64,000 bases of DNA from an uncultured virus (IMG/VR IMGVR_UViG_3300031134_000653) (IMGVR_UViG_3300031134_000653); one strand, 5' to 3'. Counted from the stretch's first letter, positions 2,236 through 52,815 are shown. Program-made: numbers and translations. Notes: generated from the letters alone by a model not told the origin.

Positions 2236-3051
2236 CTACTTTGCAAGCATCTTCGCTGGTATTGTGTTGTTCGGCCAGCGTACATAAAAACCAGTCTGGG
2301 ATAGGAACTGTCTGGCTGGTTCATTGAACTTTGCTTCCCATTCAGAGTTGGTAGGAAAACGCTCTTTAGTCAACCAGTCAACAGACAAAGCCGACCTGTA
2401 GCAGTAGTTGTACTCATACCCTGTATCCAAGTAAAACTTCACCAACCTGTTTCGATGAGATAACGCATTTGCATGTTTCGCTTCAGCACGGTCTGAATTC
2501 TCTGGAATGGTTCCATCTCCTACGTTGGTAGGTACTCCAGATAAGAATTTGCCGTTCTCATCTGCATGCTTCATCAGGATACTCCGCAAATGACGGCCAA
2601 TTCCGTAACTTCTCAAATCAGCATCGACTTTGATGTCTACAGTGACTGAAGTGTATCCATTCAGAGTGTCTTCATACAATTGATAACGCAAGCCTTCAGG
2701 GTATGTTGCATAAGCGTAGGCTTCTATGTCCTCAACGCTATCAAAAGAAGGTATGACAGTTTTGTCTACCGCTTGTACTTGCTCGACTAAATCTGGGCGA
2801 GTCAAAGGAACATGGACAAGAACTCTTCCGCCGGTGACAGCATCTTTCAACCTCAAAGCCGCGAAACCATCCTGCTCCATGAGCATGACAGCTTCAGGGT
2901 TACTCATTTCTTTGACTTTTAGGTAAGTGCTGATGTCTTGATCTTTCAGGGCTTTATCCATCGCATGTTTGATAGATAATCCTTCAGGGCAGCGAGGATC
3001 GCCGCATCCACCCATCTGATGCTTTTTGGATCGGCATTTCTGTATTCCCAT
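2236..3051 (-). CDS. Cys-tag protein with C-terminal GNAT-like acetyltransferase domain
   Basis: N-term KCRS...GCGDPRCPEG; C-term V..DLRSYGIGRHL (acetyl-CoA motif A) and RLVKFY...GY. Confidence 0.6.
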   Translation of the reverse strand: MGIQKCRSKKHQMGGCGDPRCPEGLSIKHAMDKALKDQDISTYLKVKEMSNPEAVMLMEQDGFAALRLKDAVTGGRVLVHVPLTRPDLVEQVQAVDKTVIPSFDSVEDIEAYAYATYPEGLRYQLYEDTLNGYTSVTVDIKVDADLRSYGIGRHLRSILMKHADENGKFLSGVPTNVGDGTIPENSDRAEAKHANALSHRNRLVKFYLDTGYEYNYCYRSALSVDWLTKERFPTNSEWEAKFNEPARQFLSQTGFYVRWPNNTIPAKMLAK

Positions 3052-3122
3052 ACAATGTATCTAACAGATCAAGGACGGAGAGGAGAAGCTACTTCGAAAC
3101 AAGCTTTTCCTCCCCGTGGGGT

Positions 3123-3437
3123 TTACCTCGAAATGGTCTGCAGCATCCGGGCGACATCCTTCTGCCGACCCATGATTTCATGAGCTGAGTGTGCTACAGC
3201 CTGGCGGTTGTTCACCTGGATGGTTCCCATGTTGGTAACCATATCAACTGAGTAATGGACATCCACGTAGCACTTGTTATCAGGACCAATCTCGTCTGCA
3301 ACAGGTACGAAGCTGGGGTCAATAATGACCTGAATCAAGCCAAGCGGGATGTTGGGCGTAGTCCAATCAGAGTGGCGGAGCTCGCAAGAAAGAGTGACTG
3401 CATCGCCATCAGGGTAAGAGTAGGTGTTCTTGTACAT
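3123..3437 (-). CDS. hypothetical protein
   Basis: AGGAG SD upstream; 104 aa. Confidence 0.65.
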   Translation of the reverse strand: MYKNTYSYPDGDAVTLSCELRHSDWTTPNIPLGLIQVIIDPSFVPVADEIGPDNKCYVDVHYSVDMVTNMGTIQVNNRQAVAHSAHEIMGRQKDVARMLQTISR

Positions 3438-3600
3438 TATTTCTCCTGGCGTCCATCGATATTAGGGCTAATGAGGATCAACCTACCAAGGTTAGTAGTT
3501 CGATGCAAGTCTTTAGTCATAATCAGTTTCTCAGTTTTTATGAGTAACCCCGCTAAGTCATAAAAACAAGCAAGTTGATTCTGACTTAGCGGGATCAGAG

Positions 3601-3629
3601 TTGACAACCAGATTTTGGAGGAGTATAGT
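3601..3629 (+). promoter_or_regulatory. sigma70/SigA-type promoter
   Basis: TTGACA-17 nt-TATAGT. Confidence 0.8.
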
Positions 3630-3648
3630 CTCACTTGTAAGAAACCAA

Positions 3649-3683
3649 CGGGGTTACTTGAACGCCCGACAAAACAACAAGAA
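3649..3683 (+). ncRNA. 5' UTR hairpin element, copy 1 (GTTACTTGAAC motif)
   Basis: CGGG-GTT-ACTTG-AAC-G-CCCG then AAAACAACAAGAA; repeated at 31308 and 31713. Confidence 0.7.
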
Positions 3684-3694
3684 ATGAAAATCTA

Positions 3695-4153
3695 ATGGCT
3701 ATTCGCAATGACCAGATTCGCCCCGCTCTCACCTCGGCAATGGATGCACTTCCTATCCATTCGTACGGTGAAAGGGGACTCGGTAACTATCGCATCTTCC
3801 TCGAAGGACTTGTTCCTTATCCCTTTGGTCTTGCCACTCGCAAGATGAAGAACGGTCGCATGAAGCTGACTCTTTCGGCTGATGCCTACTACGGACTCTA
3901 CGGTACGAACCTTTTCGAGGGGATTCCTACGGTTGAACTCACTGCAGGTCAGTTCATGGACCCTGAGACGCTGGGTGAAGCTATCCTGGCTCTTATCGAG
4001 CAGGAGAAGGCGATGTTCATCCCTCGGATTGCTCCTGTAAACGCTGCAGACCTTGTTTACACCGATTTGGTTCTCGACTACGTTTACCTCAACGGTTACA
4101 GCGGCACAGAGAAGAACCAGGAATACCTCCGCTCGTTTGGTATGACTGTCTAA
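3695..4153 (+). CDS. hypothetical protein (candidate early gene)
   Basis: 152 aa behind a consensus promoter and the hairpin UTR. Confidence 0.8.
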   Translation: MAIRNDQIRPALTSAMDALPIHSYGERGLGNYRIFLEGLVPYPFGLATRKMKNGRMKLTLSADAYYGLYGTNLFEGIPTVELTAGQFMDPETLGEAILALIEQEKAMFIPRIAPVNAADLVYTDLVLDYVYLNGYSGTEKNQEYLRSFGMTV

Positions 4154-6344: not shown

Positions 6345-7109
6345 ATGATGAAAAGTTTTTTCAAGAGTAGAGCCATCCGATCAGAAATACGCAAATGTCG
6401 TTCAGTTGATCCTTCACAGTGTCGCTACCATAGTCTTTACACCGGTTTGGCTGCTGCAGTGGAAGAAAAAGATATGAGCCGCTACTTAGACCTGAAAACA
6501 GCAATCTCAGAAGCGAATCGTGAAGCAGAACTGAAAGGGTTTATTGACGAATCCAACATCAATTCAGAACCCGAATTGACAGTAGATAAAAATGAAGAAG
6601 CTGAAAAATCGCTTACAATTGGTGACTTCTTGACTGATGACAAGGGAATCATCCAGGTGTACAGCAAAGACACTATAAGTTTTGAAAAAGATTACAGTGC
6701 TATGTATACCTTTGGAGAGTTTACTGACCTGGAAACAGCTAAACAACTTCATCAAGATGACCCCTACAAGAAACTCCAAAATGGTGACTGTGCTGACTTA
6801 GCTCATGAGTTGTACAATAACAACCCCTATGTTGTGAACATCTCAGAAGTCAATATTGGAGAAAGAATGCCAGGTATGGAAGAAGATGAATCCATTCATG
6901 TTATTGCTCTACTCAAAGACGGTAACTATGTGGACAGCCTTGGAATCTGGAGCAAAGAAACGATGGAAGCCGCTTGGAAGCAAATCGACCCTACCTCCCG
7001 TGTTACAGATTTCCCTTCCTTTGAAAAGAAAAAACCTTCACCAAACAACCTCCATCCTATCAACAACACAATTCGTAGGATGACGGATGCTTATTTCGAG
7101 AACAAGTAA
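6345..7109 (+). CDS. Cys/His-tag protein with C-terminal papain/transglutaminase-like (C-H-D) domain
   Basis: RKCRSVDPSQCRYH tag; NGDCADLA..L, IHVIA, YVDSLG give a putative triad. Confidence 0.55.
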   Translation: MMKSFFKSRAIRSEIRKCRSVDPSQCRYHSLYTGLAAAVEEKDMSRYLDLKTAISEANREAELKGFIDESNINSEPELTVDKNEEAEKSLTIGDFLTDDKGIIQVYSKDTISFEKDYSAMYTFGEFTDLETAKQLHQDDPYKKLQNGDCADLAHELYNNNPYVVNISEVNIGERMPGMEEDESIHVIALLKDGNYVDSLGIWSKETMEAAWKQIDPTSRVTDFPSFEKKKPSPNNLHPINNTIRRMTDAYFENK

Positions 7110-7569: not shown

Positions 7570-8574
7570 ATGGGATACGGAACCTACTCAACAAGAGCTT
7601 ACGCAGCCACAACAGGAGCAAAGATTGCTTCTGGTTCAACCTTCGGATACGACCGCACAGCTCGTTCAACCGGACGCTACGAAGCCCACGATTCACTTGA
7701 CCCTAAGAAACTGAACGCTGAAGGCAAGAACCTCCGCGAATCTCGTGATGGTGCAGACCACCCTAATGCTGTACCTATCGTAGTCGGATTCGACAGCACA
7801 GGCTCAATGGCTAACACTCCCCGAATCGTGCAGGAGAAACTTGCCAACCTGTTCGGTCTTCTCCTCCGTAAAGGCTACGTAGAAGACCCACAGATTTCCA
7901 TTGCCACATACGGTGATGCATACTGTGACCGTGTGCCACTCCAGATTTCACAGTTCGAGTCAGACAACAAGATTGACGACAACCTCGACAACCTTCTTCT
8001 CGAAGGTGGCGGTGGTGGAAACGGTGGCGAGACCGCAACCCTTCTCTGGTACTACCTCAACAACCATGTGGCTACTGACGCTTGGGACAAGCGTGGCAAG
8101 AAAGGCTACCTGTTCTTGATTGCTGACGAAGTTGCCCTGGATTTGCGTCCTGACCAGATTACCAAATTCGTTGGTGCCACAGAAGCCCCTGCAGCTTCTG
8201 AACTGACAGCTGAGAAGCTTGCTTCGAAGTTGCAGGAGAAGTGGGAAGTGTTTGTTCTCCTCCTCGACAACCTTAGTGCTCACAGCCAGGGTTCGAAGAA
8301 GTTCTACGAGAACCTCTTCGGAGCCAAGAACCTCATCATCCTTGAAAACGATGAAACAGTCAGTGAGACCATCGGTGCTGTTCTGGGTCGCATGGAGAAT
8401 GATGACTTGGATGATGACGAACTCATCGATGACCTTGTTTCTGAGGGTGCTACTAAAGCTATTGCAGAGAAGACTGCAACTGCTGTCGCTCGTCTTGGTA
8501 ACGCTCCTCGCGGGTCTGTTGCGAAGACTAACGTTCGCGTAGACACTTCCGACACAGGTGTTGAGTTCCTGTAA
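7570..8574 (+). CDS. vWA-domain protein
   Basis: MIDAS motif DSTGSM, GDA..D..PLQ..QFE, EGGGGGN.GE, KKGYLF.I.DE. Confidence 0.85.
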   Translation: MGYGTYSTRAYAATTGAKIASGSTFGYDRTARSTGRYEAHDSLDPKKLNAEGKNLRESRDGADHPNAVPIVVGFDSTGSMANTPRIVQEKLANLFGLLLRKGYVEDPQISIATYGDAYCDRVPLQISQFESDNKIDDNLDNLLLEGGGGGNGGETATLLWYYLNNHVATDAWDKRGKKGYLFLIADEVALDLRPDQITKFVGATEAPAASELTAEKLASKLQEKWEVFVLLLDNLSAHSQGSKKFYENLFGAKNLIILENDETVSETIGAVLGRMENDDLDDDELIDDLVSEGATKAIAEKTATAVARLGNAPRGSVAKTNVRVDTSDTGVEFL

Positions 8575-10502: not shown

Positions 10503-10970
10503 TCAATAAACGTCCTCTTCGTACCCTCGGTTCCTGTTGTTGATTTCAGGAGCATCTCTTTCTGCTTTGCTCAGAATTGTCTGCATTGCAATGTAGTACG
10601 CTGCGATTACAGCAAGAATGACAATCACAACACCGATGAAGTTCAAACCAGTGAAGAGGCGGATGATACTGAAGTACAAACCGAAACCAGTCAGAACAAG
10701 ACCAGCAACTGTCATACCTGAAATGGGAGCTTTCTTAGCAGCTCCAGTAGACTTCGTGGTTGTCTTCGCACTCTTATGCAGGTAGAAGTTTACTACTCCT
10801 GTCAGTAGCCCAAGGAACGGAGCGATAAACGCCAGTACAAGTGTGACCGCACCTGCGATGAGAGCTCCTTTAGGGGAAGACCAGGCTCCAAGAAACCTGA
10901 AAAATTTAGTCTTAGCGAGTTTCTCTGTCGAAGAATCTCCATTGAGATTGGATGGATTTCCAGAAGTCAT
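10503..10970 (-). CDS. membrane protein
   Basis: Three to four hydrophobic segments; AAGGA SD. Confidence 0.75.
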   Translation of the reverse strand: MTSGNPSNLNGDSSTEKLAKTKFFRFLGAWSSPKGALIAGAVTLVLAFIAPFLGLLTGVVNFYLHKSAKTTTKSTGAAKKAPISGMTVAGLVLTGFGLYFSIIRLFTGLNFIGVVIVILAVIAAYYIAMQTILSKAERDAPEINNRNRGYEEDVY

Positions 10971-11150
10971 ATCTGTTCCTTATAGTTTCGTCATGCCCAG
11001 TGTTTTGCTGTCTATAGTTCAGTGTATCTGAATATTCTGAAGTACTCAACAAAACTGAACCATGATATTTTCTCAAAATGGATACCAGTCGGAATGTAAC
11101 CGATAATAATTTCGTATCCATCCTTTACAACATTGAAAGACTTCCCCCCT

Positions 11151-12206
11151 ATGCTTAGGCTTCGCTCCGTATTGCAATCCTCTCGTGCTGCCATCGACCT
11201 GGCGAGCATCATGGTTGGTATTATTGTCATTGGTCTCATCGGCGGTGTTATCGCCGCCACTGTTTTCGCTGTCATTCCATGGTCTCAAGACAAAGCAGCC
11301 AAACAACAGCTCGATTCTGTTCACACTGCAGAGAACGCATTTTTCGGTCTATCTTCTGACCCAAGTCAAAACCTTGTAGGAGGCAAAAAGAACAGCTTTG
11401 CCAATTCAAGTGAACTTGATTCGAATAGCTTGCTGTCAAAAAATACTTCTGGTACTTACTGCGTTGTTCCGACAACTGACGGCAAAGATTACCATGCCTA
11501 TTCTAAGTCTGGTTCAGGCAAATGGTTCTACGCATTGAACAGTAACAAAGAAGCAAAAGTGTTAACTACAGGAGTTATTCCTTGTCTGTTATCAGGTGAT
11601 GCAGCTGGAACAGTAGACCCCACCGTAGATGATGGTTCAGGAACAGTTCCCACAACTCCTGGCACAGGGACAGACACAGGTACAAATCCTACTACACCAG
11701 CAGTTCCCGCTGATGTCCTCATTAAAAACTATGATTTTGAAAACAAATCAACTACCGGATTCTCTGCTTTGAATTCTCCTCGTAGTTATTCCTTCTCTGT
11801 TATTCCCACAACACGCCCAGGAAGCACAAGTGCAAACGCTTTGCAGTTTGTTTCAGAAGCAGACTCAGTGGCTACTCAACCAACCATTGTTGTAGCGATT
11901 CCAAACATTGAATACGGTCAGAAATACCGTGTCACTGCATGGGTCTACAGAGGTCACAAAGATGCTAATCGAACACCAGTTGACTTCAATGTATTTGGAG
12001 TTTCCTACAACGGTGTTGACGGAAGAGGAGACCCTGTTCCAGCGGTGAACACCTGGACAAAAGTAACCTATGAAGTTACTGCCAAATACAGAGGTCTCGC
12101 CAGCAAGAAAATTGTTGAAAACAACTTCACCATTATCAACTCAGCCCCAGCTTATGTCAATTCAAGCTTACTGGTTGATGATATTTCAATCGAGAAAATT
12201 GGATAG
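11151..12206 (+). CDS. type IV pilin-like protein with C-terminal carbohydrate-binding-like domain
   Basis: AIDLASIMVGIIVIGLIGGVIAATVFAVIPWSQD N-terminal helix, Cys pair, PT/G linker, NYDFE...Y.VTAWV...W.KVT...LLVDDISI CBM-like pattern. Confidence 0.65.
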   Translation: MLRLRSVLQSSRAAIDLASIMVGIIVIGLIGGVIAATVFAVIPWSQDKAAKQQLDSVHTAENAFFGLSSDPSQNLVGGKKNSFANSSELDSNSLLSKNTSGTYCVVPTTDGKDYHAYSKSGSGKWFYALNSNKEAKVLTTGVIPCLLSGDAAGTVDPTVDDGSGTVPTTPGTGTDTGTNPTTPAVPADVLIKNYDFENKSTTGFSALNSPRSYSFSVIPTTRPGSTSANALQFVSEADSVATQPTIVVAIPNIEYGQKYRVTAWVYRGHKDANRTPVDFNVFGVSYNGVDGRGDPVPAVNTWTKVTYEVTAKYRGLASKKIVENNFTIINSAPAYVNSSLLVDDISIEKIG

Positions 12207-13839: not shown

Positions 13840-14196
13840 ATGTCCCCCGAAACGAATACCTCAGCAGAAGAAGCTTACTGGGCTGCTGCTTCTGAAGCTT
13901 TCAAAGCAACTGAGAAATTCGGGAAGAAGCTACGTAAAGATGCTCTTTCTATCTCACCTCGAAAATTCGATACCGAAATCCATTCACTTCAGAAATTCCG
14001 TGAACAGTCTGAAGCTTTCTCAGACCAGCTGGCTGAAGAGATTTCATCGCTCAGTGAGCAGCTTTCGTTGGAAGAGCTTTCCGCTAAGGTCCAGCTGTTT
14101 TTCACAGTCCAGAAGCTCAGTGACAATGTTGACTTGGTAGCAGCTTCAACCGCGAACACTCGTGACCGTATTCAGCTTATCAAAGCGATGTACTAA
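13840..14196 (+). CDS. helical hypothetical protein
   Basis: GGAG SD before MSPE. Confidence 0.7.
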   Translation: MSPETNTSAEEAYWAAASEAFKATEKFGKKLRKDALSISPRKFDTEIHSLQKFREQSEAFSDQLAEEISSLSEQLSLEELSAKVQLFFTVQKLSDNVDLVAASTANTRDRIQLIKAMY

Positions 14197-14254
14197 TACA
14201 GGTCTACCTACTTAGTAGCGGACCTGTGATAGACTGAGGACAGAAAGGTTTATT

Positions 14255-15544
14255 ATGAGGAAAGATGATATTGTCACAGGACTATTCTTAGGTGACGAAG
14301 GAAAAGGGACCGCTGTCGACTATCTTGCCCACCTAAACCGACCAGTTTCTGTTGTTCGAACAGGTGGCCCGCAAGCTGCACACAATGTTGTTAGCCCTGA
14401 CGGCACCCACCACACCTTTGCCCAGTTCGGCTCTGCTTCATTGCAGGAAGTTCCCACTATCCTGTCCAAGTACATGTTGGTCAATCCTTTCAACCTGGTC
14501 ACAGAAGGCGACCTTTTGTATGCGAAAACTGGAGGATGGAATCCTTTCAGTGACCTTCTCATTAGTGAGAATTCGCTCCTTATCACACCTCTCCACATTT
14601 TTCTGAATAAGAAAAGAGAAGACGCCCGAGGCAGCACCGCTCATGGTTCTACAGGTGAAGGCATCGGAGAAACACGACTGTTCCACATTCGCCATCCTGA
14701 GTATGCCCCAATCATGGGCGATTTGCAGCTCGGTAACCTGGACCGCCTGAAAACAAAGCTACAGGCTTTGTACGAATATGTTGAAGAGGAATGTTCCAAC
14801 ATCTGGGACGAAGGAACTGTCGATTCGCTTCATCAGGAGTACATAAACTTAGCGACAGATGAATTCCTCAACATCGTAGATGACGAGAAAATCTCTGAAC
14901 GCATCCGAGAGGGTTACACTATCTTCGAATGCTCACAAGGTGTTCTCCTGGACGAATCCTTAGGTTTCCACCCACATACCACCTGGACTGGTTCAACGTC
15001 TCAGAACGCCCAGCAGCTGCTCTCAGATGCAAATAAGTCTGCCGGTACAGTCATTGGAGTGACAAGAACGTACGCCACAAGACACGGAAATGGTCCTTTG
15101 CCTTCTGAGCTCCCTAACACGGATGAAAACATTACCAGAATGCCAGAAGACCATAATGCGTACGGTCATTACCAAGGAGGTTGGCGTCGAGGACACCTTG
15201 ACCTGCCCTTGCTTGAGTATGCAGTTCGAGCTAACAAAAAAGTAGACTTACTGTTCCTCACTCATTGCGATTTAGTCACAAAGGAATTCCAGGTAGTAAC
15301 CAGCTACCGAGACTGGAAAGATATTCCTTCAACGTTCTATGACCGCGATAGAGTCAAGCAGGAGGAAATTACCTCCCATCTTATGTCGTTGTCCTTAGAG
15401 GATGCCGAACTGACACAAGTTGAGTCTTTGGAAGAACTGGAAGAACTTCTTGAGCAGGAACTTGAAGTTCCAGTTGGCTACCGTTCATTCGGTAAAACTT
15501 ACGATGATAAGACTGTTGTTCAGGTAGGCTTCCAGCCTTCTTGA
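14255..15544 (+). CDS. adenylosuccinate synthetase-like protein (divergent PurA family)
   Basis: G..LGDEGKG..VD, GGPQAAHNV, HGSTG.GIG, FE.SQGVLLD..GFHP.TT, TR.Y.TRHGNGPLP.E, R.G.LD. Confidence 0.85.
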   Translation: MRKDDIVTGLFLGDEGKGTAVDYLAHLNRPVSVVRTGGPQAAHNVVSPDGTHHTFAQFGSASLQEVPTILSKYMLVNPFNLVTEGDLLYAKTGGWNPFSDLLISENSLLITPLHIFLNKKREDARGSTAHGSTGEGIGETRLFHIRHPEYAPIMGDLQLGNLDRLKTKLQALYEYVEEECSNIWDEGTVDSLHQEYINLATDEFLNIVDDEKISERIREGYTIFECSQGVLLDESLGFHPHTTWTGSTSQNAQQLLSDANKSAGTVIGVTRTYATRHGNGPLPSELPNTDENITRMPEDHNAYGHYQGGWRRGHLDLPLLEYAVRANKKVDLLFLTHCDLVTKEFQVVTSYRDWKDIPSTFYDRDRVKQEEITSHLMSLSLEDAELTQVESLEELEELLEQELEVPVGYRSFGKTYDDKTVVQVGFQPS

Positions 15545-15607
15545 GTTCCTGATTCAAGTAACGCCTCTCCGAAACGAGGGGCGTTACTTGCTGTTAGAAA
15601 TATGATT

Positions 15608-16516
15608 ATGACAAGAGTGAGATATCCAAGAGTTGCTGTAGGTAACGGCAGTTACTGTTACGCAGGACCTGATTGTAAGCTGCATGGCAAAGCTGCTAAT
15701 ACAAAAGTGGGATCATCTGATCTATCCACTGGGAACTTACCAGTTCAAACAGATGGGTGGTCACGTCAAGAATTTGCTTCGAAGTTGGAAGCCTGCAACA
15801 AAGCCTATGACGAAGCAGTTAAGGCTTCCAAGTTTGTGGAGAATCTTTCTGACCTGAAAGGTAACGCTCTTATGAAGGGCTACCTCGCCAGAGAATCAGA
15901 TGATGGTACCGGCTACCATGTATACAAAGCTGATGCCTCTTTGTTAGCAACTGGAACAAAAGTACTGTACCAAGAAATTGCATCCGCAGCCGCTGATGGT
16001 GTGCTGGCGCCTAAGAAAGCTAATGATCTCAGGAAAGAGCTGTCTGAGTATTCCAACCAAGTGTTAAGACCTCAAGCTGCTGAAGACAAGAAGCTGATGG
16101 AGAAACTCCAGAGTCGTTACGTCAAAGAAGGTGCTAACCAAGGAGCGATTCATAACCGCCAACAACAGCTTGCTTCTGCTCGCATACGTCAAGGATTGCC
16201 TGCTGTCTTAGATAAAGACACAGTTACTCCAGCTTTGTACCCAGTGACTGAGCTCAGCAACAAACAACTGTTGGAATACTACCAGTGCGGTAGGAAGAAA
16301 TCTTTCAATTCTGAACAAGAAGCCCAGTATTCCATTTCAGTTGTAGGTGACCCTTCTTTGCAGTCATACAAATGCTCTCATTGTGACAAAACACATACCG
16401 GTCATGGCGGCGGACAGAACTCTGAAGAAGAACAACTACTAAGTGCTGCACGGCATTGGGAGAAGTTCCCTGAAAAGTCTAACATGTTTGCTTTTGCTAA
16501 AGGTTTCATCAATTAG
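15608..16516 (+). CDS. Cys/His-tag protein with C-terminal C2H2-like zinc finger
   Basis: YCYAGPDCKLHG tag; CGRKKSF.SE..A ... YKCSHC...H.GHG; tandem paralog of 16536. Confidence 0.75.
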   Translation: MTRVRYPRVAVGNGSYCYAGPDCKLHGKAANTKVGSSDLSTGNLPVQTDGWSRQEFASKLEACNKAYDEAVKASKFVENLSDLKGNALMKGYLARESDDGTGYHVYKADASLLATGTKVLYQEIASAAADGVLAPKKANDLRKELSEYSNQVLRPQAAEDKKLMEKLQSRYVKEGANQGAIHNRQQQLASARIRQGLPAVLDKDTVTPALYPVTELSNKQLLEYYQCGRKKSFNSEQEAQYSISVVGDPSLQSYKCSHCDKTHTGHGGGQNSEEEQLLSAARHWEKFPEKSNMFAFAKGFIN

Positions 16517-16535
16517 GAACTGTTAGAAATAGTTC

Positions 16536-17390
16536 ATGACAAGAACTCGTTATCCACGCGTACCAGTAGGTAATGGTAGCTACTGTTATGCAGGACCTAC
16601 CTGCAAAATCCATTCCGCTTCCTCCGCTGGCTACCATATCCGGAAGATGGATGAAGCCAACGCAGAAAGTGTCAAAACTTTTCAGCGTTTGGTCAAAGAA
16701 GAAGGGCAGTTTGTTCCTGCTTTAGAAGACTTAGGTGACGAAGCTCTGTTGCGTGGAAGAGCTGCCTACTATTCAGAAAAAGATAAAGGCTTCTACGTGT
16801 ACAACTCATCCGACATCAATGTTGCTGTTGTAGAGATAGTCAAAAAGCCATTGAAAGACTTCAACCAAGCTGTAGTGGATGGTGTTTTCCCTAAAGACCA
16901 GGCGAACGATACAAGGAACAAGCTTCTCGCAATCTCAAAAACTCCTGGTTACAAAAGTCTACAAACTGAAAACCGCAAGACACTAACTGATTTCCAAAAC
17001 AGTTTCGATGCTTCTGAAGCTGCCATTGAGAAAAGAAACAAACAGCGAGAATTAGCTCGTAGTCTTTCTATCATACAGCCAAAAGTAATTTACGACAGAC
17101 CTGTCATGGTTCCTGAGAGTAAAATTGATGATGCAACCATGTTGGAATACTGGAGATGTGGTCGCAAAACAAAGTTCGAGGATGCTGCTGCTGGCACTAA
17201 AATGATTCAAGAACTCAACGAGACCGAAACTATGAGTACTTACATGTGTGACTACTGTCCTAAAGTTCACATTGGTCATGGTTTCGGTAAAGGTCCTGAA
17301 GATGAAGCTCTAGTCAAAGCTCGTGCTCATTGGACAGAGAATGCAGAAAAAGCCAACCTTTTTGCTTTCGCTAAAGGCTGGCTTAACTAA
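16536..17390 (+). CDS. Cys/His-tag protein with C-terminal zinc finger (paralog of 15608)
   Basis: YCYAGPTCKIHS tag; CGRKTKF...YMCDYC...HIGHG; shared FAFAKG C-terminus. Confidence 0.75.
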   Translation: MTRTRYPRVPVGNGSYCYAGPTCKIHSASSAGYHIRKMDEANAESVKTFQRLVKEEGQFVPALEDLGDEALLRGRAAYYSEKDKGFYVYNSSDINVAVVEIVKKPLKDFNQAVVDGVFPKDQANDTRNKLLAISKTPGYKSLQTENRKTLTDFQNSFDASEAAIEKRNKQRELARSLSIIQPKVIYDRPVMVPESKIDDATMLEYWRCGRKTKFEDAAAGTKMIQELNETETMSTYMCDYCPKVHIGHGFGKGPEDEALVKARAHWTENAEKANLFAFAKGWLN

Positions 17391-17399
17391 TCTCTGCAG

Positions 17400-17777
17400 T
17401 TAGAGGATGGACTGTCTAATCTGTCCGCTGTTAGCTTCCTGTACTTGGTCATTCAGAGTGATTGCTTCGTAAATCCAGTAGACGAACAAAGCCAGACCAA
17501 TGATTCCACCGATGAAAATGGCTGACGTGATTGCTGCGATGGCCCATGCGGCAAGAATGAAGAGACCGCGTTTCATGTTCCCGATGTAATACTGGTGAAC
17601 ACCGAAGATTCCCAAGAAGAACCACAGAACATAAGCTAAGACAACATTCTTAGGAGCTGCTGGTACTGGATGTGGAACTAAGTTTTTCTCCCAGGTGAGA
17701 CCGAAGATGTTGAAAGCTTTCTTTGGCTCTTGAGGGTTTGATGCTTGTTGGTACCCGTATGGGCTTTGGTCTGACAT
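17400..17777 (-). CDS. TM2 domain membrane protein
   Basis: K...LAYVLWFFLGIFGVHQYYIG. Confidence 0.85.
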   Translation of the reverse strand: MSDQSPYGYQQASNPQEPKKAFNIFGLTWEKNLVPHPVPAAPKNVVLAYVLWFFLGIFGVHQYYIGNMKRGLFILAAWAIAAITSAIFIGGIIGLALFVYWIYEAITLNDQVQEANSGQIRQSIL

Positions 17778-17854
17778 GAGGTTCCTTCCTACTCAGGTAC
17801 AAAAGTTATCGACTGTTTCAGGGTTTACAGAGAAAACATTCAGTTTGCATTCAA

Positions 17855-18184
17855 TTAGTGAAACGAATCTCCACAAGCACAGCTGCCGGCAGCGTTAGGG
17901 TTGTCAATAGTGAACCCTTGTTTTTCGATGGTGTCCTGGAAGTCAACAACAGCTCCTTCAAGGTAAGGGCTACTCATTTTGTCGACAATTACTTCAAGTT
18001 CACCGAAGTTCTGGATGAAGTCTCCATCATGTTCTCTTTCGTCAAAGAACAATGCATAGATGAGTCCGGAACACCCTCCAGGGCTGACTTGAACTCTAAG
18101 CCTCATATCTTCACGATTCTGGTCGGAAAGAAGCTGCCAGGCTTTATTTGAAGCCTGCTCTGTAAGATTGATGGGGAATGACAT
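17855..18184 (-). CDS. HesB/IscA/ErpA family Fe-S cluster carrier protein
   Basis: LRV.V.PGGCSGL.Y, VDKMS.PYL.GA.VDF, GFTIDNPNA.GSCACGDSFH. Confidence 0.95.
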   Translation of the reverse strand: MSFPINLTEQASNKAWQLLSDQNREDMRLRVQVSPGGCSGLIYALFFDEREHDGDFIQNFGELEVIVDKMSSPYLEGAVVDFQDTIEKQGFTIDNPNAAGSCACGDSFH

Positions 18185-18218
18185 TGATTTTCCTTTCAGT
18201 ACCTGGTATTATCAGTAC

Positions 18219-18764
18219 ATGTCTTCTATTTCTAAGGATACCGGAGTGTATCAGTCTTACTCATTTAGCATTTCTCCTCGGGTGAAGCGTAAGCAGTATG
18301 TTGTGGCGGAGAGCTACACCATCCCAGCGGAATCGACTGACCTGGTAGAGAAGTACAACCTGGAGCGAGACCTGACTTCGATGACGAAGTTGTTCCTTTC
18401 CATCGACCACATCATGAGCGGTTTGGATGAGAAGGACGAAGATTATGCGGGTCTTTACTACATCATCAAAATCATCCTCATCAAGCGCAGCGGTTCTGTG
18501 TTCCGTGAGGTCTTGGAGAATGTTCCTGTTGACCTTATCTCTGACCGACTGTGGTACGCATTCAATATGTTTGGCGACTGGTATTCTTCCACTGGTCCGA
18601 GCTTTGCTTACATGCCCAAGCCTGCACTCAAGCGTTTCCTGAAGGCTCATGGCGAAGAGCGAATGCGAAGCATGCATTGGGATGAGGTCAAGCCTTACCT
18701 GCTGATGCGTGGAGATAACATGTCCAAGAAGAGCAAGTTCTTCAAGGCTCTTGACTTGGCGTAA
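18219..18764 (+). CDS. hypothetical protein
   Basis: Leaderless TATTAT-6-ATG start. Confidence 0.7.
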   Translation: MSSISKDTGVYQSYSFSISPRVKRKQYVVAESYTIPAESTDLVEKYNLERDLTSMTKLFLSIDHIMSGLDEKDEDYAGLYYIIKIILIKRSGSVFREVLENVPVDLISDRLWYAFNMFGDWYSSTGPSFAYMPKPALKRFLKAHGEERMRSMHWDEVKPYLLMRGDNMSKKSKFFKALDLA

Positions 18765-18837
18765 CAGTTAGAGCAAACAAAGAGCTTCCAGCCTCACAAT
18801 TATGAGGTTGGAAGCTCTTTGTTGTTAGAATCTGCTT

Positions 18838-19209
18838 ATGAAGAAAATTCTTATTATCAGTGCTGCTGGTCTTGTTATCGTGGGTGTTATCGTTGCGATT
18901 TTTGTGATGTTCAAAATGGAGCATGACAAGATCATGGCAGAGGGTGTTGATACCCAGAGTGTCTCTGCAGTGGTTGAGTCCAGGAGAGAATCGCACAGTA
19001 CAGGTACAGGTAACTCTCGCCGTACAACATACGATACCGTTTACTATGTTGAGTATTCCTATGAAGCTAACGGCAGAGGCTACGAAATTTCCAGCCAGAA
19101 ATTCCAAACGAAAAGTTCAGCTGAAGCTCGTAAAGCTGAAGGTACAGTAACCATTCGTTACCTAGAGGAAAACCCTGACAGAGCTATCCTTTTTGATGCC
19201 AAAAAGTAA
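18838..19209 (+). CDS. DUF3592-like membrane-anchored protein
   Basis: N-terminal TM; Y.VEY.Y..NG..Y ... G.V.IRY...NP..A. Confidence 0.7.
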   Translation: MKKILIISAAGLVIVGVIVAIFVMFKMEHDKIMAEGVDTQSVSAVVESRRESHSTGTGNSRRTTYDTVYYVEYSYEANGRGYEISSQKFQTKSSAEARKAEGTVTIRYLEENPDRAILFDAKK

Positions 19210-19221
19210 TACCCAGTTCTT

Positions 19222-19263
19222 AAACGAAGAAGCCCCTCAGATGTCTGAGGGGCTTCTTCGTTT
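19222..19263. terminator. bidirectional terminator
   Basis: AAACGAAGAAGCCCCTCAGA / TCTGAGGGGCTTCTTCGTTT. Confidence 0.8.
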
Positions 19264-41203: not shown

Positions 41204-41742
41204 GCAACAAGCTTACCTGTACTGTCATAACCGACTTGGGCACTGTCCACATAGCCTACCCAGTCAGGAAGTTCCGAGTACTTCGCTGAAGTTGTTCGAA
41301 CTTTCTCCATGACAAGAACATCCACTCCGTCAATTTTATCCCAGCTGTTAGTGGCAACTGGGATAAAAGAGTCTTCTTCTTGACCTGCACGGTATTCGTA
41401 ACCGTTTGCAAGTTCACCTTCATCAGTGAAAGGGACTTTGAGTACGTTTCCGTCTTTCAAGTCAAACACTGCACGAGTTCGACCAATTTTCGGTGTCCCG
41501 TATGTGTCAACCATCTTTTTCATGAGAGCGCGAACTTTTGCTGTGTAATCTCCCCAGTCGCATCTGCTGAGGTTATCTTCGATGTATGCTAATCGAATTT
41601 CACGAGTTTTTTGTTTCTGTTCTTGTTCTTCTCGTATCCGTAAATACTCATCAGCGTTAGAGGTCACAGGGCTGGAAGAAGGTGTTCCATGAGTGCGGCA
41701 GCGAGCAGGTTCTTTAGCTCGGCATCTCACTTTGGTTGTCAT
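41191..41742 (-). CDS. Cys/His-tag protein with minimal kinase-like domain
   Basis: RCRAKEPARCRTHG tag; IGRTRAVF....VLKVP....G..AN..E, LVMEKV, D..QVG......VAYD. Confidence 0.6.
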   Translation of the reverse strand: MTTKVRCRAKEPARCRTHGTPSSSPVTSNADEYLRIREEQEQKQKTREIRLAYIEDNLSRCDWGDYTAKVRALMKKMVDTYGTPKIGRTRAVFDLKDGNVLKVPFTDEGELANGYEYRAGQEEDSFIPVATNSWDKIDGVDVLVMEKVRTTSAKYSELPDWVGYVDSAQVGYDSTGKLVAYDL

Positions 41743-44427: not shown

Positions 44428-45579
44428 TTAGCTTAGTACAAAGCTAAATGTTTGTGTACTTGTGTGAGCTGTGATGGTTGCACCCTTGAGGTGTTCCTGC
44501 ATCTGACTGTAGGTTTTGTAAGGAGCTTTGCCCTGGAAACCGAAGTAGTCCAAAGTGATTGACTTGATGATTTTGTCTTCGTTCAGCACAACCTTCATGC
44601 GGTCATTGTAGTTGACTCGGCTATTGTAGTCAGTTGGCTTCAAGTCTGATTTGTCTCCTACTTGGGTGTACACTGTACCATCAGTAGCAGTCATTGTGAT
44701 GCCTTTACCGTAACGGTCAAGGTAGAATTCTGATTCCCATTCACCAGCTTCGTTCTTGAAGAACATTTCACTGGAAAGGTCAGTGAACCCTGCAACCTGT
44801 TCAGCTGAAGGGTTTTCAACTACAGCGTTCATGGTCCAGTAAACTTCTTGGCGGTTCTGAGCTTTGATTGCGTCAATTTCAGCTCGTGTACCGTAAGCAC
44901 TACTGTTCATCTGGTTAAGTGGGTCCATGGAATATGTGGCGTTAGTAACAGAGCCTTCTGAAGCTCCGCCACCTACTGGACCGTAAGCGATGCTGTCATC
45001 AGGTTCAGCAGGCTGTCCGCCACCGTTGTCACCACCATCTCCAGGTGGGGCTGGCTCTGTTTTGGTGGGAGTTGCTCCGTATCGAGTGTCAACGGTAAAA
45101 ACGTTGCCGGAAGCGGAAGTTACGTAAGCAATATAGAATGGCTTGTTGTCGTCTTTGCCGGCGTAGATGTAAACTTTATCATCACCAAATTCTTTCAAGT
45201 CAAGCAAAGAACCAACGTCTTTACCTTTCAAAGGTGACTCCAGGTTCACAACTTCACCATCACCTGTTTGACCTTGAACATCTGCTTTAGGGTCGGCTAG
45301 TGCATCTTTGTTCGCATAAGAATCTTGGCCAGCTTCTGAAGCGAAACCACGGTAAGTGTTTTCTGCTGTTGCGATTGAGTCAAGCTGTTGTTTAGCGGCA
45401 TTGTCCTGAGACCAAGGAATTACTGCGAAGACTGTGGCTGCGATTACTCCACCAATCAAGCCAATGACGATGATACCTACCATGATTGAGGCAAGGTCGA
45501 TGGCACCGTTTTCGTTGACGAATACTTCACGAGACAACTTTCGTTGACGCATTTTGTTCGTGATGTCGTTTTTAGGCAT
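44428..45579 (-). CDS. type IV pilin-like protein (paralog of 11151, different C-terminus)
   Basis: Basic leader then ENG/AIDLASIMVGIIVIGLIGGVIAATVFAVIPWSQD.AAKQQLDS..TAEN. Confidence 0.65.
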   Translation of the reverse strand: MPKNDITNKMRQRKLSREVFVNENGAIDLASIMVGIIVIGLIGGVIAATVFAVIPWSQDNAAKQQLDSIATAENTYRGFASEAGQDSYANKDALADPKADVQGQTGDGEVVNLESPLKGKDVGSLLDLKEFGDDKVYIYAGKDDNKPFYIAYVTSASGNVFTVDTRYGATPTKTEPAPPGDGGDNGGGQPAEPDDSIAYGPVGGGASEGSVTNATYSMDPLNQMNSSAYGTRAEIDAIKAQNRQEVYWTMNAVVENPSAEQVAGFTDLSSEMFFKNEAGEWESEFYLDRYGKGITMTATDGTVYTQVGDKSDLKPTDYNSRVNYNDRMKVVLNEDKIIKSITLDYFGFQGKAPYKTYSQMQEHLKGATITAHTSTQTFSFVLS

Positions 45580-49333: not shown

Positions 49334-49858
49334 TTAGCGGGTGATACGGACCACTTCGCACCGACTGACTTTTGGTTCACCATACAGAGTGTTCAGTTTT
49401 GTCAACGTGCTTTCCCGAAGAGGAGTGAATGAATCAACGATAATGTGTGTCGTAGATAACTGAGCTCCAGGGACTCCTGCTTCAACCAGTTCTTGGATGA
49501 CGAACATGGGGTCTTTGTTCGCAGCAGAAAACCTGTACCTGAGATGAGTTTCATTTCCAGGTTTGTATACGACTCGTACAGCATCTTGGTTGAAGAGCTC
49601 ACGCAAAGCAGCAGCAACTTTTTCTATGTCCTTACGGTTACCTGAAATCTTTGTCGTCACTGACGGTTCATGCGAGCCTTCCCAAATACCAATTGTTTTG
49701 TGAAGAGCATTCGACTGGATGTTGTTGCTTGAAACCAGCTTGTTGTAAGTGTCAACAAAGGTGTTGTACTTGGAGGAAGAGTAAAATGGGTCATCAAAAG
49801 AAGGTTTGACACTCACATCTGTATCAGTGAACGGGGTGAGACTGTAGTAAGCTTTCAT
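49334..49858 (-). CDS. hypothetical protein, possible SAM-lyase/DUF3293-like fold
   Basis: IG.WEG..EPS ... A..L..LFNQDAV; ATGA overlap. Confidence 0.5.
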   Translation of the reverse strand: MKAYYSLTPFTDTDVSVKPSFDDPFYSSSKYNTFVDTYNKLVSSNNIQSNALHKTIGIWEGSHEPSVTTKISGNRKDIEKVAAALRELFNQDAVRVVYKPGNETHLRYRFSAANKDPMFVIQELVEAGVPGAQLSTTHIIVDSFTPLRESTLTKLNTLYGEPKVSRCEVVRITR

Positions 49859-50535
49859 GACCAATCAGTAATAATCATCGGACGTAAACGTTTCCATGAG
49901 TCAACATCCACAAAAAGTTCCAACCATTCGCAAATGTTGACTACATCTGTAGGAACATTCGGAACCTTGCGGGTAATCGCTTGCTCGATGGATTCATACC
50001 CACTCTCAGCAGCAGCTTTGCGAGAATAATCATTGTCCAGGTTGAACCTCAAAACATTCATAATCTCCTTGGAAAGAACTTGACCAGTTTCAGAATCCAT
50101 ATAAGACCCTGAGTAAGGGAATTGACCATACTTCAAAACACGGTAACTGTTTTCACCCATAAGGTCATCATCAACATCCTCAGCTTCAGCGTAATCAATA
50201 GCATCATCTGAGTGCTTCCACTCGTTGACAACCAAAAACGGAGTCACAACTACTGCAGTTTTGCCATTTGGCATGTCTACAATAGTCACAAAATCTCGAC
50301 TGGTAACTTTGCTGAAATTGCCATTGATGTCATTCTGTAACCAGCTGATGTCACTACCTGGAAGGTCAAGCCCGTCTTTCTCAGTCGGGTTAGCTTCTTT
50401 CCTTTTTAGGAACTCCAAGTATTCGGACATGGATAAGTGCTTATTGCCTTTGTGTTTGGTGTTGATTACGGAATCATAGTCTTCTTCCGTAAGGACAACG
50501 CCATATCCCATTACCTTGTGAATCCTGATCCCCAT
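49855..50535 (-). CDS. hypothetical protein
   Basis: MGIRIHK.MGYG ... LRPMI...WS; GGAG SD. Confidence 0.75.
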   Translation of the reverse strand: MGIRIHKVMGYGVVLTEEDYDSVINTKHKGNKHLSMSEYLEFLKRKEANPTEKDGLDLPGSDISWLQNDINGNFSKVTSRDFVTIVDMPNGKTAVVVTPFLVVNEWKHSDDAIDYAEAEDVDDDLMGENSYRVLKYGQFPYSGSYMDSETGQVLSKEIMNVLRFNLDNDYSRKAAAESGYESIEQAITRKVPNVPTDVVNICEWLELFVDVDSWKRLRPMIITDWS

Positions 50536-50626
50536 GTTTACTCCAGTAGAAAATGTGTCTGTTAAAATGTCTCAGTTGTGAGACACCTTATGCCAGGTGT
50601 CTCACAACTGAAATGTGGAAGGAGAG

Positions 50627-51103
50627 TTATTCCAGATTCTCCAGGTCATACCCTTCGTACTCACCATCGGCACGGTAGTCGATGACAGCCAGAGCAAGAG
50701 GAGCAGGGTTGCGCTGCTTGAAACCTTCAGAGTCATCAGTAGTGAACTGATGGGCGTCTTCAGGGGCAACACTGACGACCTTCTCCAATGCTGCAAACCA
50801 TGCGTCCTCGTTCTTCTTCTCACGCTCCCAAACGGTACGGCGTTTCTGGATGGCAGCACGCTTCTTCTTCGTTTCACTCAAGAAGGGCTCAGGCAAAGCT
50901 TCGACCTGCTCTTCTGTGAAAGCAACCAGCTTCTGCTCTTCACCGTTCAGAGGAAACTCTCCGTCATACTCGCGGTGATACCAGTATCCTTCTTCGACTC
51001 TCTGCTTCAGAATCACAGCACATGCTCGTGCCAGCTTCTGATTGTCAGAAGCGTCGAAATACCGCTCACCATACTTTTCTCGGAAGATGATAACGCGTCC
51101 CAT
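50627..51103 (-). CDS. hypothetical protein
   Basis: AAGGA SD; R.D.EYEG C-terminus. Confidence 0.75.
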   Translation of the reverse strand: MGRVIIFREKYGERYFDASDNQKLARACAVILKQRVEEGYWYHREYDGEFPLNGEEQKLVAFTEEQVEALPEPFLSETKKKRAAIQKRRTVWEREKKNEDAWFAALEKVVSVAPEDAHQFTTDDSEGFKQRNPAPLALAVIDYRADGEYEGYDLENLE

Positions 51104-51198
51104 ATTAGAGTCCTTTGTGTAGAAAATGTACTTACGATTAGTGCCATTCTACCACTTTTTCCTTGCTGTTTCAAGCCATAACTGGTAGAATAACAACT

Positions 51199-51576
51199 AT
51201 GAGTACAGAGTACAGTGGGTATGTCGGATATGGTTTCTACGCCAACTATTCAGCTGACTCTTTCAACATCCTAAAAGAGTTCTATGAGGAAACTACTGGT
51301 AACGAATACCTTCTGAACAAAGACCCTGACTGGGCTCACTGGTATGTTGAAGCTCTTGATTTTGGTCTACCTGTCCAAGTCAGTGTCGAAAAAGATGGAG
51401 AGCACCGAATCATCTTAGTGTTGGCGGATAAGCATTCCTGGTTTGATACTACTTTGGTAGGTGCCAGACACGTCAGGACACCAGACATAGGTAACCTTTC
51501 CAGAAAACTGGTGGATGACCTTGCCAAGAAAATGGATGTCGAAGCCGGCATCATCATGTACGCAACATACGAATGA
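51199..51576 (+). CDS. hypothetical protein (paralog of 51589)
   Basis: YSG.VG(Y/F)GF ... F.ILK.FYE..T ... LA....V..G...Y shared; leaderless. Confidence 0.75.
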   Translation: MSTEYSGYVGYGFYANYSADSFNILKEFYEETTGNEYLLNKDPDWAHWYVEALDFGLPVQVSVEKDGEHRIILVLADKHSWFDTTLVGARHVRTPDIGNLSRKLVDDLAKKMDVEAGIIMYATYE

Positions 51577-51588
51577 GAAGAGAAAATA

Positions 51589-51969
51589 ATGGGATTAGAT
51601 TACAGCGGTAGTGTTGGTTTTGGATTTGTTTCACCTTACAACAAAGAGGTGTTTGAGATTCTTAAAGGTTTCTATGAGAAGAAGACCAGCGAAACATACG
51701 AACCTGAAGACGAGTATGACGGCATGGACCAGAACATCTCTCATCGCATGTTCCCTGGTGTGATGGTTCAGACTGTCTGGTTCGAAAGCACTGGAAACCG
51801 TCAGCTTTTTGTCATGTACGACAAAACTCGTGTCTCCTTGGAACGAACAGACATGGAAGGACGCTACATCACTGTTCCCGAAAACAACTTAGCTATCGAC
51901 ATCATAGAAGAGCTGGCTGATTTGCTTGGAGTGGACACAGGAATGGTCATCTACTCCGAGTATTCGTGA
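51589..51969 (+). CDS. hypothetical protein (paralog of 51199)
   Basis: Same shared pattern as 51199. Confidence 0.75.
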   Translation: MGLDYSGSVGFGFVSPYNKEVFEILKGFYEKKTSETYEPEDEYDGMDQNISHRMFPGVMVQTVWFESTGNRQLFVMYDKTRVSLERTDMEGRYITVPENNLAIDIIEELADLLGVDTGMVIYSEYS

Positions 51970-51970
51970 G

Positions 51971-52747
51971 TTAGTGACTTTCCACTAAAGTAACTATCGT
52001 GGCATGAGCAGAGCTTCTTCTCGCTGTTTTGGAAGGGTTGCTTATTCTGCGATGCGGGAGTACTTGCTCCACGACAAATTCTTTGTCTCGTGGGTGCAGG
52101 TACTCCTGTTCTTTTTCGCTGAAAGTCTGTCCGTAGTTTGACACTGGAGCTCCAGGACGGGTTTTCATGACGAAGACAAGGTTACCTAAACCTCTGTCCG
52201 GTTCATCTGCAAGGTATTCTTCCCAGTCAGCTTGAGTTGGGAACGTAGATGTACCAATAGGTGGCTGCAAGTCTGCATGTGATTCTGGAAGGAAGTCGAA
52301 AAGAGCGTCAGGGTTTGGTGTGGTTGACGTGAACCCAGCAAGTTTTACTCGACCTTTGACAGGGAACTGCTGCTTTACCCATTCTTCAGCTTCTTCTCTA
52401 CTTCGGAAATCTTGGTAACACTTTGTGGCACGGTAAGTGATGACTGTTTCTGCTGGAGCAATCTCTTCGTATTTTTTCAACGCACTGTCAAGCTGTTTGA
52501 TTCGCTCAAGAGTATCTGCAGAAGGAGTCAAATCCGCACCATGCAGGTGGGCGTTCATCTCCATGTAGCTCTGGTCCAAATAATCTGTAACTGCTGCTAC
52601 CTCGTATTTGTTGAGGAACAACTTCAGCTTTTCCGATTCCCGAGTATGGGTGTTGTAGTCTAGGCTGGTTGAGGTGAAAACGTACTCGCCAGTCTCACCA
52701 TGCACACGGCAAGCGGAAGGGTTCTTTGCTTGGCATTTTCTTTTCAT
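51971..52747 (-). CDS. Cys/His-tag ADP-ribosyltransferase (R-S-E, VIP2/Alt-like)
   Basis: RKCQAKNPSACRVHG tag; Y....Y..MN..L, I..LDSAL, TYRA, GFTSTT, EQEYL.PR...F.V. Confidence 0.8.
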   Translation of the reverse strand: MKRKCQAKNPSACRVHGETGEYVFTSTSLDYNTHTRESEKLKLFLNKYEVAAVTDYLDQSYMEMNAHLHGADLTPSADTLERIKQLDSALKKYEEIAPAETVITYRATKCYQDFRSREEAEEWVKQQFPVKGRVKLAGFTSTTPNPDALFDFLPESHADLQPPIGTSTFPTQADWEEYLADEPDRGLGNLVFVMKTRPGAPVSNYGQTFSEKEQEYLHPRDKEFVVEQVLPHRRISNPSKTARRSSAHATIVTLVESH

Positions 52748-52815
52748 GGAGAATTCCTAACAAAAAGATTGGGACCCCTCCCATTTGAGGGGTCCCAATC
52801 GCTTCATTCTTTCAA

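Follow-up and report, generated by a model that had tools for sequence, protein, structure and literature searches.

The 64,000-nt stretch of DNA from an uncultured virus (IMG/VR IMGVR_UViG_3300031134_000653) that was analyzed here, below called the window, contains six dispersed genes whose products open with a small Cys/His module, the tag. Profile searches and alignments indicate that the tag module is a real family with hundreds of members, selected at the protein level and fused to many unrelated payloads, and that three of the six window genes are solid members of this family while the other three are divergent. In relatives outside the window, domain matches place the module at the transition from phage portal domains to C-terminal effector domains, or at the start of a gene that overlaps the stop of the portal gene. 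We tentatively read the tag as the N-terminal adaptor of head-associated effector cassettes, with proteins that would be loaded into the virion by non-covalent docking, and consider this reading to be slightly short of an even chance.

The tag in the window and in its relatives

The consensus of the module is a Cys-x-Ala-Lys-[Asp/Asn]-Pro-x-Thr-Cys-Arg-x-His-Gly knuckle, which is placed 4-20 residues after the Met in the window genes. A preliminary description, made from the sequence alone, had quoted the N-termini of six open reading frames (ORFs), and our translations agree with all six. The N-terminal consensus given there, C-x5-7-C-(R/K)-x-H, fits five of them, and the protein that starts at 3051 on the minus strand is, as described, a variant without the His. 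The pattern C.{5,7}C[RK].H was matched six times in a six-frame translation of the window, whereas 30 shuffles yielded 1.0 matches on average and at most 3. Five of the matches correspond to the N-termini at 6345(+), 15602/15608(+), 16536(+), 41742(-) and 52747(-). The sixth match, at 19845(-), lies in a junk frame that is not an ORF.

The canonical tag is found in P0006 (51971-52747, minus strand; C5-G17, nt 52697-52735), which has an ADP-ribosyltransferase (ART) payload, and in P0005 (41191-41742, minus strand; C7-G19, nt 41686-41724), which has a small payload with a kinase-like lead. P0002 (6345-7109, plus strand) contains the variant CRSVDPSQCRYHS (nt 6396-6434), followed by a helical hairpin that extends to approximately nt 6524 and a payload without a family. 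The tags are divergent in P0003 (15608-16516, plus strand; YCYAGPDCKLHG, nt 15656-15688), which has a Cys/His finger region at its C-terminus, and in its tandem paralog P0004 (16536-17390, plus strand; YCYAGPTCKIHS, nt 16584-16616). The ATG at 15608 is the probable start of P0003, and an earlier ATG is located at 15602. Finally, P0001 (2236-3051, minus strand) has a degenerate tag, C6...G24 (nt 2980-3036), with no His in register, followed by a shared hairpin helix and a payload without a family.

A hidden Markov model (HMM) of the module was built from the modules of the collected tagged proteins, with P0002, P0005, and P0006 in the training set, and run on all open frames of the window. These three proteins obtained E-values of 1.3e-14, 2.4e-13, and 4.9e-15, respectively, and have the C-x7-C-x2-H register with a Pro within about 20 residues from the start. 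Ranked right behind them, at non-significant values, were P0001 (0.71), P0004 (0.75), and P0003 (9.9). The register is C-x5-C-x2-H in P0003 and P0004, and P0001 has no His in register, while all 146 genuine members from the database search below keep C-x7-C-x2-H. The first three proteins are thus solid members of the HMM family, and the other three are divergent. The latter are indirectly supported by the motif at their N-terminus and by the same promoter element upstream. The membership of P0001 is further supported by the post-tag helix, which is shared between the genes at 3051 and 6345, as had been described, and which is the part covered by the HMM alignment. The membership of P0003 is supported by its C-terminal Cys/His region, which is homologous to that of P0134 (E 4e-08), a protein with a canonical tag.

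P0003 and P0004 are 32% identical to each other (E 1e-49), and P0003 shows a weak match to phrog_14788. Among nine homologs of P0006 with 46-99% identity, residues C5, A7, C13, H16, and G20 are invariant, and P10 and R14 are present in at least 90%. The P0005 ortholog P0025 contains the full knuckle and hairpin module, and the P0002 orthologs P0027 and P0078 have canonical or near-canonical tags.

For the search outside the window, the core motif was back-translated to degenerate DNA patterns, which were scanned against viral contigs, one genome per prokaryote species, and metagenome contigs. The prokaryote genomes yielded 14 loci, six of which were judged to be real and eight to be chance matches in high-GC non-coding frames. 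The metagenome contigs yielded 81 loci, 27 of them on five contigs of 725-883 kb. The loci from the metagenome and viral scans (L017-L099) represent 67 distinct contexts: in 51 of these, the first Cys is found at most 12 residues after the ATG that opens a protein of 125-407 aa, another 13 are internal or ambiguous, and three match by chance in high-GC frames.

A profile of 44 N-terminal tag segments retrieved 383 protein clusters at E<=1e-3 from a database of 1.84 billion representatives. The top 150 matches contained 146 new genuine members, two P0006 orthologs that were already known, and two artefacts (P0016 and P0103), which are false matches to translated tandem repeats. C-x7-C-x2-H and the Pro are present in all 146 members, the Asp or Asn in 144, the Gly in 140, the Ala and the Lys in 139 each, and the Arg in 128. 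The tag is located at or near the N-terminus in 145 of the members, with a leader of 4-6 residues before the first Cys in 103 of these, the exception being P0159 with the motif at residue 228. The N-terminal 220 residues of P0159 look MuF-like by eye, with no Pfam match, and we make no MuF claim for this protein. Ten family members were checked, and all of them come from run assemblies only. Each of the conserved tag residues is encoded by several synonymous codons across 45 distinct DNA versions, which argues that the selection on the tag acts at the protein level.

No Pfam model covers the tag, even when isolated tag segments are searched at E<=10. The leads for the tag alone in a language-model atlas are below the threshold (best 0.85; DUF7207 0.84), and since no such family appears in Pfam at E<=10, they were set aside. 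With its 383 clusters, the tag is a coherent and large family, and the lack of such a family was an outcome that the preliminary description had named as one that would speak against its reading.

A two-helix hairpin follows the knuckle in many members, among them P0002 and, as a degenerate version, P0001, which brings the module to about 45 residues in total. The extension after the knuckle reads ...HG-A-x-x-R-M-E-K-A-x-x-x-G-D-x-x-A-Y-F-x-A-R-x-E. AlphaFold2 (AF2) was run on a member of 108 aa with a 44-row alignment, and the mean predicted local distance difference test score (pLDDT) was 74 for the block of residues 1-10 and 93-98 for the blocks of residues 11-40, with helices at 15-28 and 32-56. 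The module is thereby confidently predicted to be a mini-domain consisting of a knuckle and a helical hairpin. A Foldseek search with the model of the module against the PDB gave no match (best E = 3). The tag resembles small zinc knuckles and fingers in its C-x7-C-x2-H spacing and in having an invariant Pro and a Gly, which are typical of metal-binding loops. It differs from them in that only three ligands are invariant rather than the four of a zinc finger or knuckle, and in that it has neither a Pfam zinc model nor a PDB match. The sole zinc-type match in Pfam was Zn_clus to one tag segment (E 0.016), which is below the cut-off of that family.

Payloads and phage portals

The payloads had been described as swappable, which agrees with the 84 BLAST groups into which the 159 tagged proteins were sorted at 1e-4. 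The largest group has 41 members and is linked partly via the hairpin region. BLAST found no relationship among the C-terminal parts of the window proteins, as had been claimed, but P0003 and P0004 are paralogs. The R-S-E ADP-ribosyltransferase assigned to the gene at 52747(-) was confirmed by a match of P0006 to the Pfam family ADPrib_exo_Tox (7e-11; 42.2 bits vs. a cut-off of 23.4). The catalytic pattern R / S-T-S / E-x-E is also in place, and residues R106, T140-S141-T143, E213, and E215 are invariant in 10 sequences. The match of P0006 to phrog_802 (Alt-like; 2.7e-05) runs through the ART domain only. The minimal kinase-like payload of P0005 has a language-model lead to Kinase-PolyVal and T7 kinase clusters (0.90-0.91), but it has no Pfam match, and the PDB sequence search with P0005 gave nothing meaningful. 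The GNAT-like payload proposed for P0001 and the papain/transglutaminase-like payload proposed for P0002 found no support in Pfam and PDB sequence searches.

At E<=0.01, Pfam matches were obtained for 13 of the 38 payloads from the loci, with five matches to ADPrib_exo_Tox, two to GNAT, and the others to NUDIX, RlaP nucleotidyltransferase, RLIG1-like, and a DnaJ zinc finger, in addition to two weak matches. At E<=1e-4, 12 of the 146 database members matched: two ART, two GNAT, GGACT, a DUF4379 array with a restriction endonuclease (REase)-like domain, LRV, PGDYG, OB-fold, and a DnaJ finger. The effector repertoire of conflict systems is thus present, with ART in P0006, and ART, GNAT, NUDIX, nucleotidyltransferase (NTase), PBECR, and LPD3 in the tagged relatives. 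Next to P0006, two tandem paralogous small genes (51163-51576 and 51589-51969, plus strand) are oriented convergently to the ART gene, facing its 3' end. They have no family match, and an immunity-like or regulator role is possible.

The analogy with effectors fused to MuF or portal proteins turned into a direct sequence link, in that the same motif is found at the junction between portal and effector in L006, L034, L001/L087, and L049. For example, a single protein of 703 aa in L006, a metagenome-assembled genome (MAG) of Kiritimatiellae, contains Portal_Mu at residues 55-396, the motif at approximately 529, and PBECR1 at 597-687. The order is the same in L034, with Portal_Mu at 70-425, the motif at 544, and LPD3 at 636-725, and in L001/L087 and L049, Phage_portal_3 is followed by the motif. 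The fusion to a portal is a feature of these same-tag relatives, and none of the six window proteins contains a Pfam portal or MuF domain. When the part of the L006 protein that comprises the tag and PBECR1 was used in a tblastn search, Helicobacter phages were matched via PBECR1 only and not via the tag. Fusions to MuF and portal proteins are taken as a sign of packaging in the head and injection (PMC5512222, PMC9503650).

A second arrangement is found in L008 and L015, where terminase and Portal_Mu genes are followed by a gene for a tagged protein of 137 aa, with a 4-nt overlap between start and stop. The protein begins with MSDEC-QAKDPATCRVHG and has a weak PBECR2 match. In the portal alignment, the unfused portals of these two loci (Portal_Mu at 1829-3619 on the minus strand of L008 and at 536-2992 on the plus strand of L015) keep the remnant CRN----CPQDGG at the position where the fused portals have an intact tag. 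The degenerate tag at the end of the portal, followed by an overlapping gene with an intact tag and a PBECR2-like domain, looks like an effector replacement at the tag.

The L008/L015 arrangement also bears on another explanation, according to which the module is a junction or processing element that marks the exchange of effector cassettes by recombination, possibly with self-cleavage at [Asp/Asn]-Pro that may separate the effector from the portal, or from a short stub at the N-terminus. A remnant at the portal C-terminus that precedes a new gene with an intact tag recalls displaced or orphan toxin modules, and the motif always stands directly before the variable part. Furthermore, [D/N]-P is present in 144 of the 146 members, and the Pro in all of them, and self-cleaving Asn-Pro or Asp-Pro motifs occur in other proteins (FlhB NPTH, GDPH, FrpC). 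However, conservation at the DNA level is low and the synonymous codons vary freely, which would make the tag an inefficient site for homologous recombination when the members are distant. In the stand-alone proteins, cleavage at [D/N]-P would also be pointless because the first invariant Cys, which only 4-6 residues precede, would be lost. We regard a junction or processing element as improbable.

Pre-toxin junction motifs of polymorphic toxins, such as VENN and PT-TG, are also short conserved elements right before a hypervariable C-terminal domain, and the remnant copy followed by a fresh module in L008 and L015 adds to the likeness. Unlike these motifs, the tag is found in the context of the phage head rather than of a secretion system, it also opens free-standing proteins, and it is predicted to be a folded mini-domain.

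The motif was also identified in a complete phage record of 251,769 bp with inverted terminal repeats (G001). The record has two neighboring giant ORFs, both acidic and with 1178 and 1480 aa (L099/L108, 121.7-129.8 kb), each of which contains the motif and has no Pfam match, and the same pair is present in a Fibrobacter MAG (L004). A terminase match in the phage record is located about 20 kb from these ORFs and falls below the family cut-off, and it was not used as evidence.

The upstream GTTAG element

The presence of GTTAG before all six tagged ORFs was borne out and could be specified as a 9-mer, GTTAGnnAT/C, followed by a spacer of 5 nt and the ATG. The elements are GTTAGGAAT before P0006 (52753-52761, minus strand), GTTAGTAAT before P0005 (41748-41756, minus strand), GTTAGATAC before P0001 (3057-3065, minus strand), and GTTAGAAAT before P0002 (6331-6339), P0003 (15593-15601), and P0004 (16522-16530), all three on the plus strand. 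The spacer is 6 nt if the ATG at 15608 is taken as the start of P0003. A spacer of 5-6 nt leaves no room for a Shine-Dalgarno (SD) sequence, in agreement with the reported lack of an SD before the tagged ORFs.

The window contains nine sites of GTTAGnnAT, six of which have a start codon 5-6 nt further on and a long ORF, and five of these six ORFs are tagged. In the window, GTTAG is tied to the tagged genes, as it precedes 5 of 6 tagged ORF calls but only 4 of the 83 untagged calls with 90 aa or more (Fisher p 1.7e-5), and the count for the tagged genes becomes 6 of 6 with the P0003 start at 15608. The untagged starts behind GTTAG are located at 18838(+), 20162(-), 4984(-), and 55114(-), which means that the element is not specific to the tag. 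For example, it precedes a gene for a DUF3592 membrane protein (18824-19209 including the element, plus strand; GTTAGAATC + 5 nt + ATG) and a gene for a protein of 299 aa (19263-20176 including the element, minus strand; GTTAGGATT + 5 nt + ATG).

Outside the window, the element is located exactly 5 nt from the start in 31 of 49 distinct regions upstream of tagged genes, and no conservation resembling a -35 element is visible. In another four of the 49 regions, the element is placed 21 nt upstream and is followed by an SD of the AAGGAG type. GTTAGnnAT-N5-ATG precedes 30 distinct ORFs in the loci and the window together, of which 23 are tagged, three are one-residue variants of the tag, three have looser Cys pairs, and one lacks all of these. 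Ascertainment makes the central gene of each locus a tagged one, and the window figures are therefore the unbiased ones for the link between the element and the tag. We infer that GTTAGnnAT is a -10-like promoter element for leaderless mRNA rather than a translation signal, based on the fixed 5-nt spacer, the lack of room for an SD, and the four cases in which the same 9-mer is located 21 nt upstream before an SD.

The element could also point to an explanation without a function for the tag, in which the shared N-termini are by-products, either of a recent event that duplicated a 5' gene segment and its promoter or of an RNA-level need of leaderless translation. The tag and the promoter element travel together, and the first codons of leaderless mRNAs can affect initiation. 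However, the conservation is at the amino acid level with free synonymous variation, the motif is found deep inside the portal-fused proteins and the giant ORFs, far from their starts, and the module is kept in 383 diverged clusters and has a confident AF2 fold. A by-product is thus largely refuted, and we consider it to be very improbable.

A second upstream element, TTGAACGCC-N6-AAAACAACAAGAAA, was observed at 31317-31345 and 31723-31751 on the plus strand, before the genes at 31357 and 31763 (two matches vs. zero expected), and a version that is shorter by one base is found before 3695. It may represent another class of promoters or leaders.

Possible virion loading, alternative roles and the host element

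According to the reading that we favor, the six window genes would encode stand-alone effector-type proteins that open with a small module, and this module would be the adaptor at the N-terminus of effector cassettes that are associated with the head and ejected together with the DNA. In the element of about 0.8 Mb that carries the window genes, the cassette would have been freed from the portal and multiplied into many dispersed, independent genes. A metal-stabilized knuckle, formed by the two Cys, the His, and a further putative ligand, would dock the enzymes non-covalently to the portal or the inner capsid, and the docked enzymes would be loaded and delivered with the DNA. With GTTAGnnAT as a -10-like element, its fixed distance of exactly 5 nt to the ATG would put the transcription start on the A of this codon or beside it and yield a leaderless mRNA, and the common promoter would make the tagged genes one co-regulated class.

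The capsid-targeting sequence of phage T4 and the Alt protein provide a likeness, in that enzymes with a presumed delivery alongside the DNA, an ART among them, carry a short N-terminal element. In T4, this signal is not of a Cys/His type and is removed by the prohead protease, and we know of no sequence likeness between it and the tag. Head-packaged ARTs are discussed in PMC9503650. Variable effectors on head proteins are also found among the polyvalent proteins (Iyer et al. 2017, PMC5512222) and the MuF toxins (Jamet et al. 2017, PMC5576092), and these systems have the effector classes ART, NUDIX, PBECR, LPD3, and, as a lead only, kinase-PolyVal in common with the tag family. Unlike these systems, the six window proteins contain no portal or MuF domain and are encoded by separate genes with their own promoter-like element. 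The module appears to be undescribed in the main texts of PMC5512222 and PMC5576092, in which the word "cysteine" does not occur, and neither "knuckle" nor "ribbon" occurs in the main text of the former.

Virion loading of the tagged proteins is plausible, but several observations weigh against it. Tagged proteins have so far been observed in no virion, and neither the window nor the flanks of the giant contigs yielded a gene for a capsid protein, portal, or terminase; the host element of about 0.8 Mb is only a putative phage. The strict DNA pattern was found at only two loci among 2.9 million IMG/VR contigs, and a tblastn search with one tag module against 50,697 deposited phage records gave a single match (E = 2), which was discarded. 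Longer relatives of the P0005 or P0006 payloads with a portal or MuF fusion were not found either, which is weak evidence. The knuckle itself has only three invariant candidate metal ligands (Cys, Cys, His) across the 146 members and no zinc-finger match at the Pfam cut-off. P0006 lacks the hairpin, and the AF2 model of its knuckle (residues 1-19) has a pLDDT below 50, compared to 80.7 for the ART fold, and the divergent three of the window genes obtained only the non-significant HMM values given above. Four sequencing runs from four studies cover parts of the window as contigs, and the single RNA run among the data has small pieces on 16 of 30 bins, none of them on the starts of the tagged genes, and is thus uninformative about expression and transcript starts. 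Furthermore, the module is also present in portal-fused proteins, where a label would be redundant. This somewhat undercuts a pure role as an address label, and the module may be conserved for another job.

One such job would be within the host cell, with the module as a docking or nucleic-acid-binding element that brings the enzymes to one hub, such as the RNA polymerase, the ribosome, or the DNA, and with the tagged genes as an early, co-transcribed class for host takeover. That the module is kept where the effector is already joined to the portal fits with a role after delivery, and the tight tie to one simple promoter with leaderless starts suits a class for immediate expression. In addition, the payloads are enzymes that modify macromolecules or nucleotides, and the compact predicted knuckle and hairpin make a plausible binding unit. 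No partner is known, however, and the module resembles no solved DNA-, RNA-, or protein-binding domain (best Foldseek E = 3). Host docking alone also leaves the recurrent position beside portal domains and genes unexplained, and we consider it rather unlikely. As an extension of the adaptor reading, the Cys2-His knuckle and hairpin could be a portable signal for capsid loading or escort with the DNA, a phage counterpart of a secretion signal, which we regard as doubtful, although somewhat less so than docking in the host.

Window positions 49698-55736 match a part of a metagenome contig of 788,683 bp with 91% identity over 6043 nt. Genes for accessory functions that are typical of phages were identified in the window and in the flanks of the giant contigs, including pyrimidine-dimer glycosylase, a PurA-like enzyme, RNA ligases, Tpt1, Macro, NUDIX, ribonucleotide reductase (RNR), ThyA, DHFR, GyrB, and DNA methylases. 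In comparisons with deposited phages, a near-identity DNA search with positions 14000-20000 and a tblastn search with P0006 gave no match. The PurA-like adenylosuccinate synthetase (14255-15544, plus strand) and a phrog_2971-type protein (7570-8574, plus strand) have the same distribution among deposited phages, with 201 records from Mycobacterium, 10 from Rhizobium, and 6 from Vibrio, which suggests that the two genes may form a functional pair. The products of 11133-12206 (plus strand) and 44428-45579 (minus strand) have a common pilin-like hydrophobic N-terminus, IDLASIMVGIIVIGLIGGV..., and it looks like a conserved leader that is common to many diverged genes. A depth peak is located at 10673-11339 in all four sequencing runs, with many contig breaks at 11166-11321. 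The gene at 57603-60230 (minus strand) encodes a protein of 875 aa that contains many RCC1 repeats (Pfam RCC1-like domain, 6.7e-111) and whose N-terminus is signal-like.

A phage genome of 735 kb is given as the largest described in 2020 (PMC7162821), and the five tag-bearing contigs of 725-883 kb would, if they are phages, match or exceed it. The tag family is a testable case of a head-fused effector cassette that would have turned into a dispersed multigene family, tied to a distinctive promoter and apparently leaderless transcripts and, if viral, carried by elements among the largest phage genomes. Should the portable signal prove to be true, phage-like elements of about 0.8 Mb would deliver perhaps 10-40 independently encoded enzymes (an extrapolated number) under one leaderless promoter class, and the tag would be a handle for listing all proteins that uncultured giant phages inject. 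Irrespective of packaging, the module is a conserved predicted mini-domain with neither a Pfam family nor a solved relative, coupled to the diversification of effectors. Without a fused MuF or portal domain, phage proteins that accompany the DNA into the cell are difficult to spot by sequence, and if the module marks separately encoded injected proteins, it would provide a simple search key for them. This key already retrieves 383 clusters, and the 134 of the 146 examined members that have no Pfam match would be a rich source of host-modifying enzymes that are still unexplored, and possibly of counter-defence factors.

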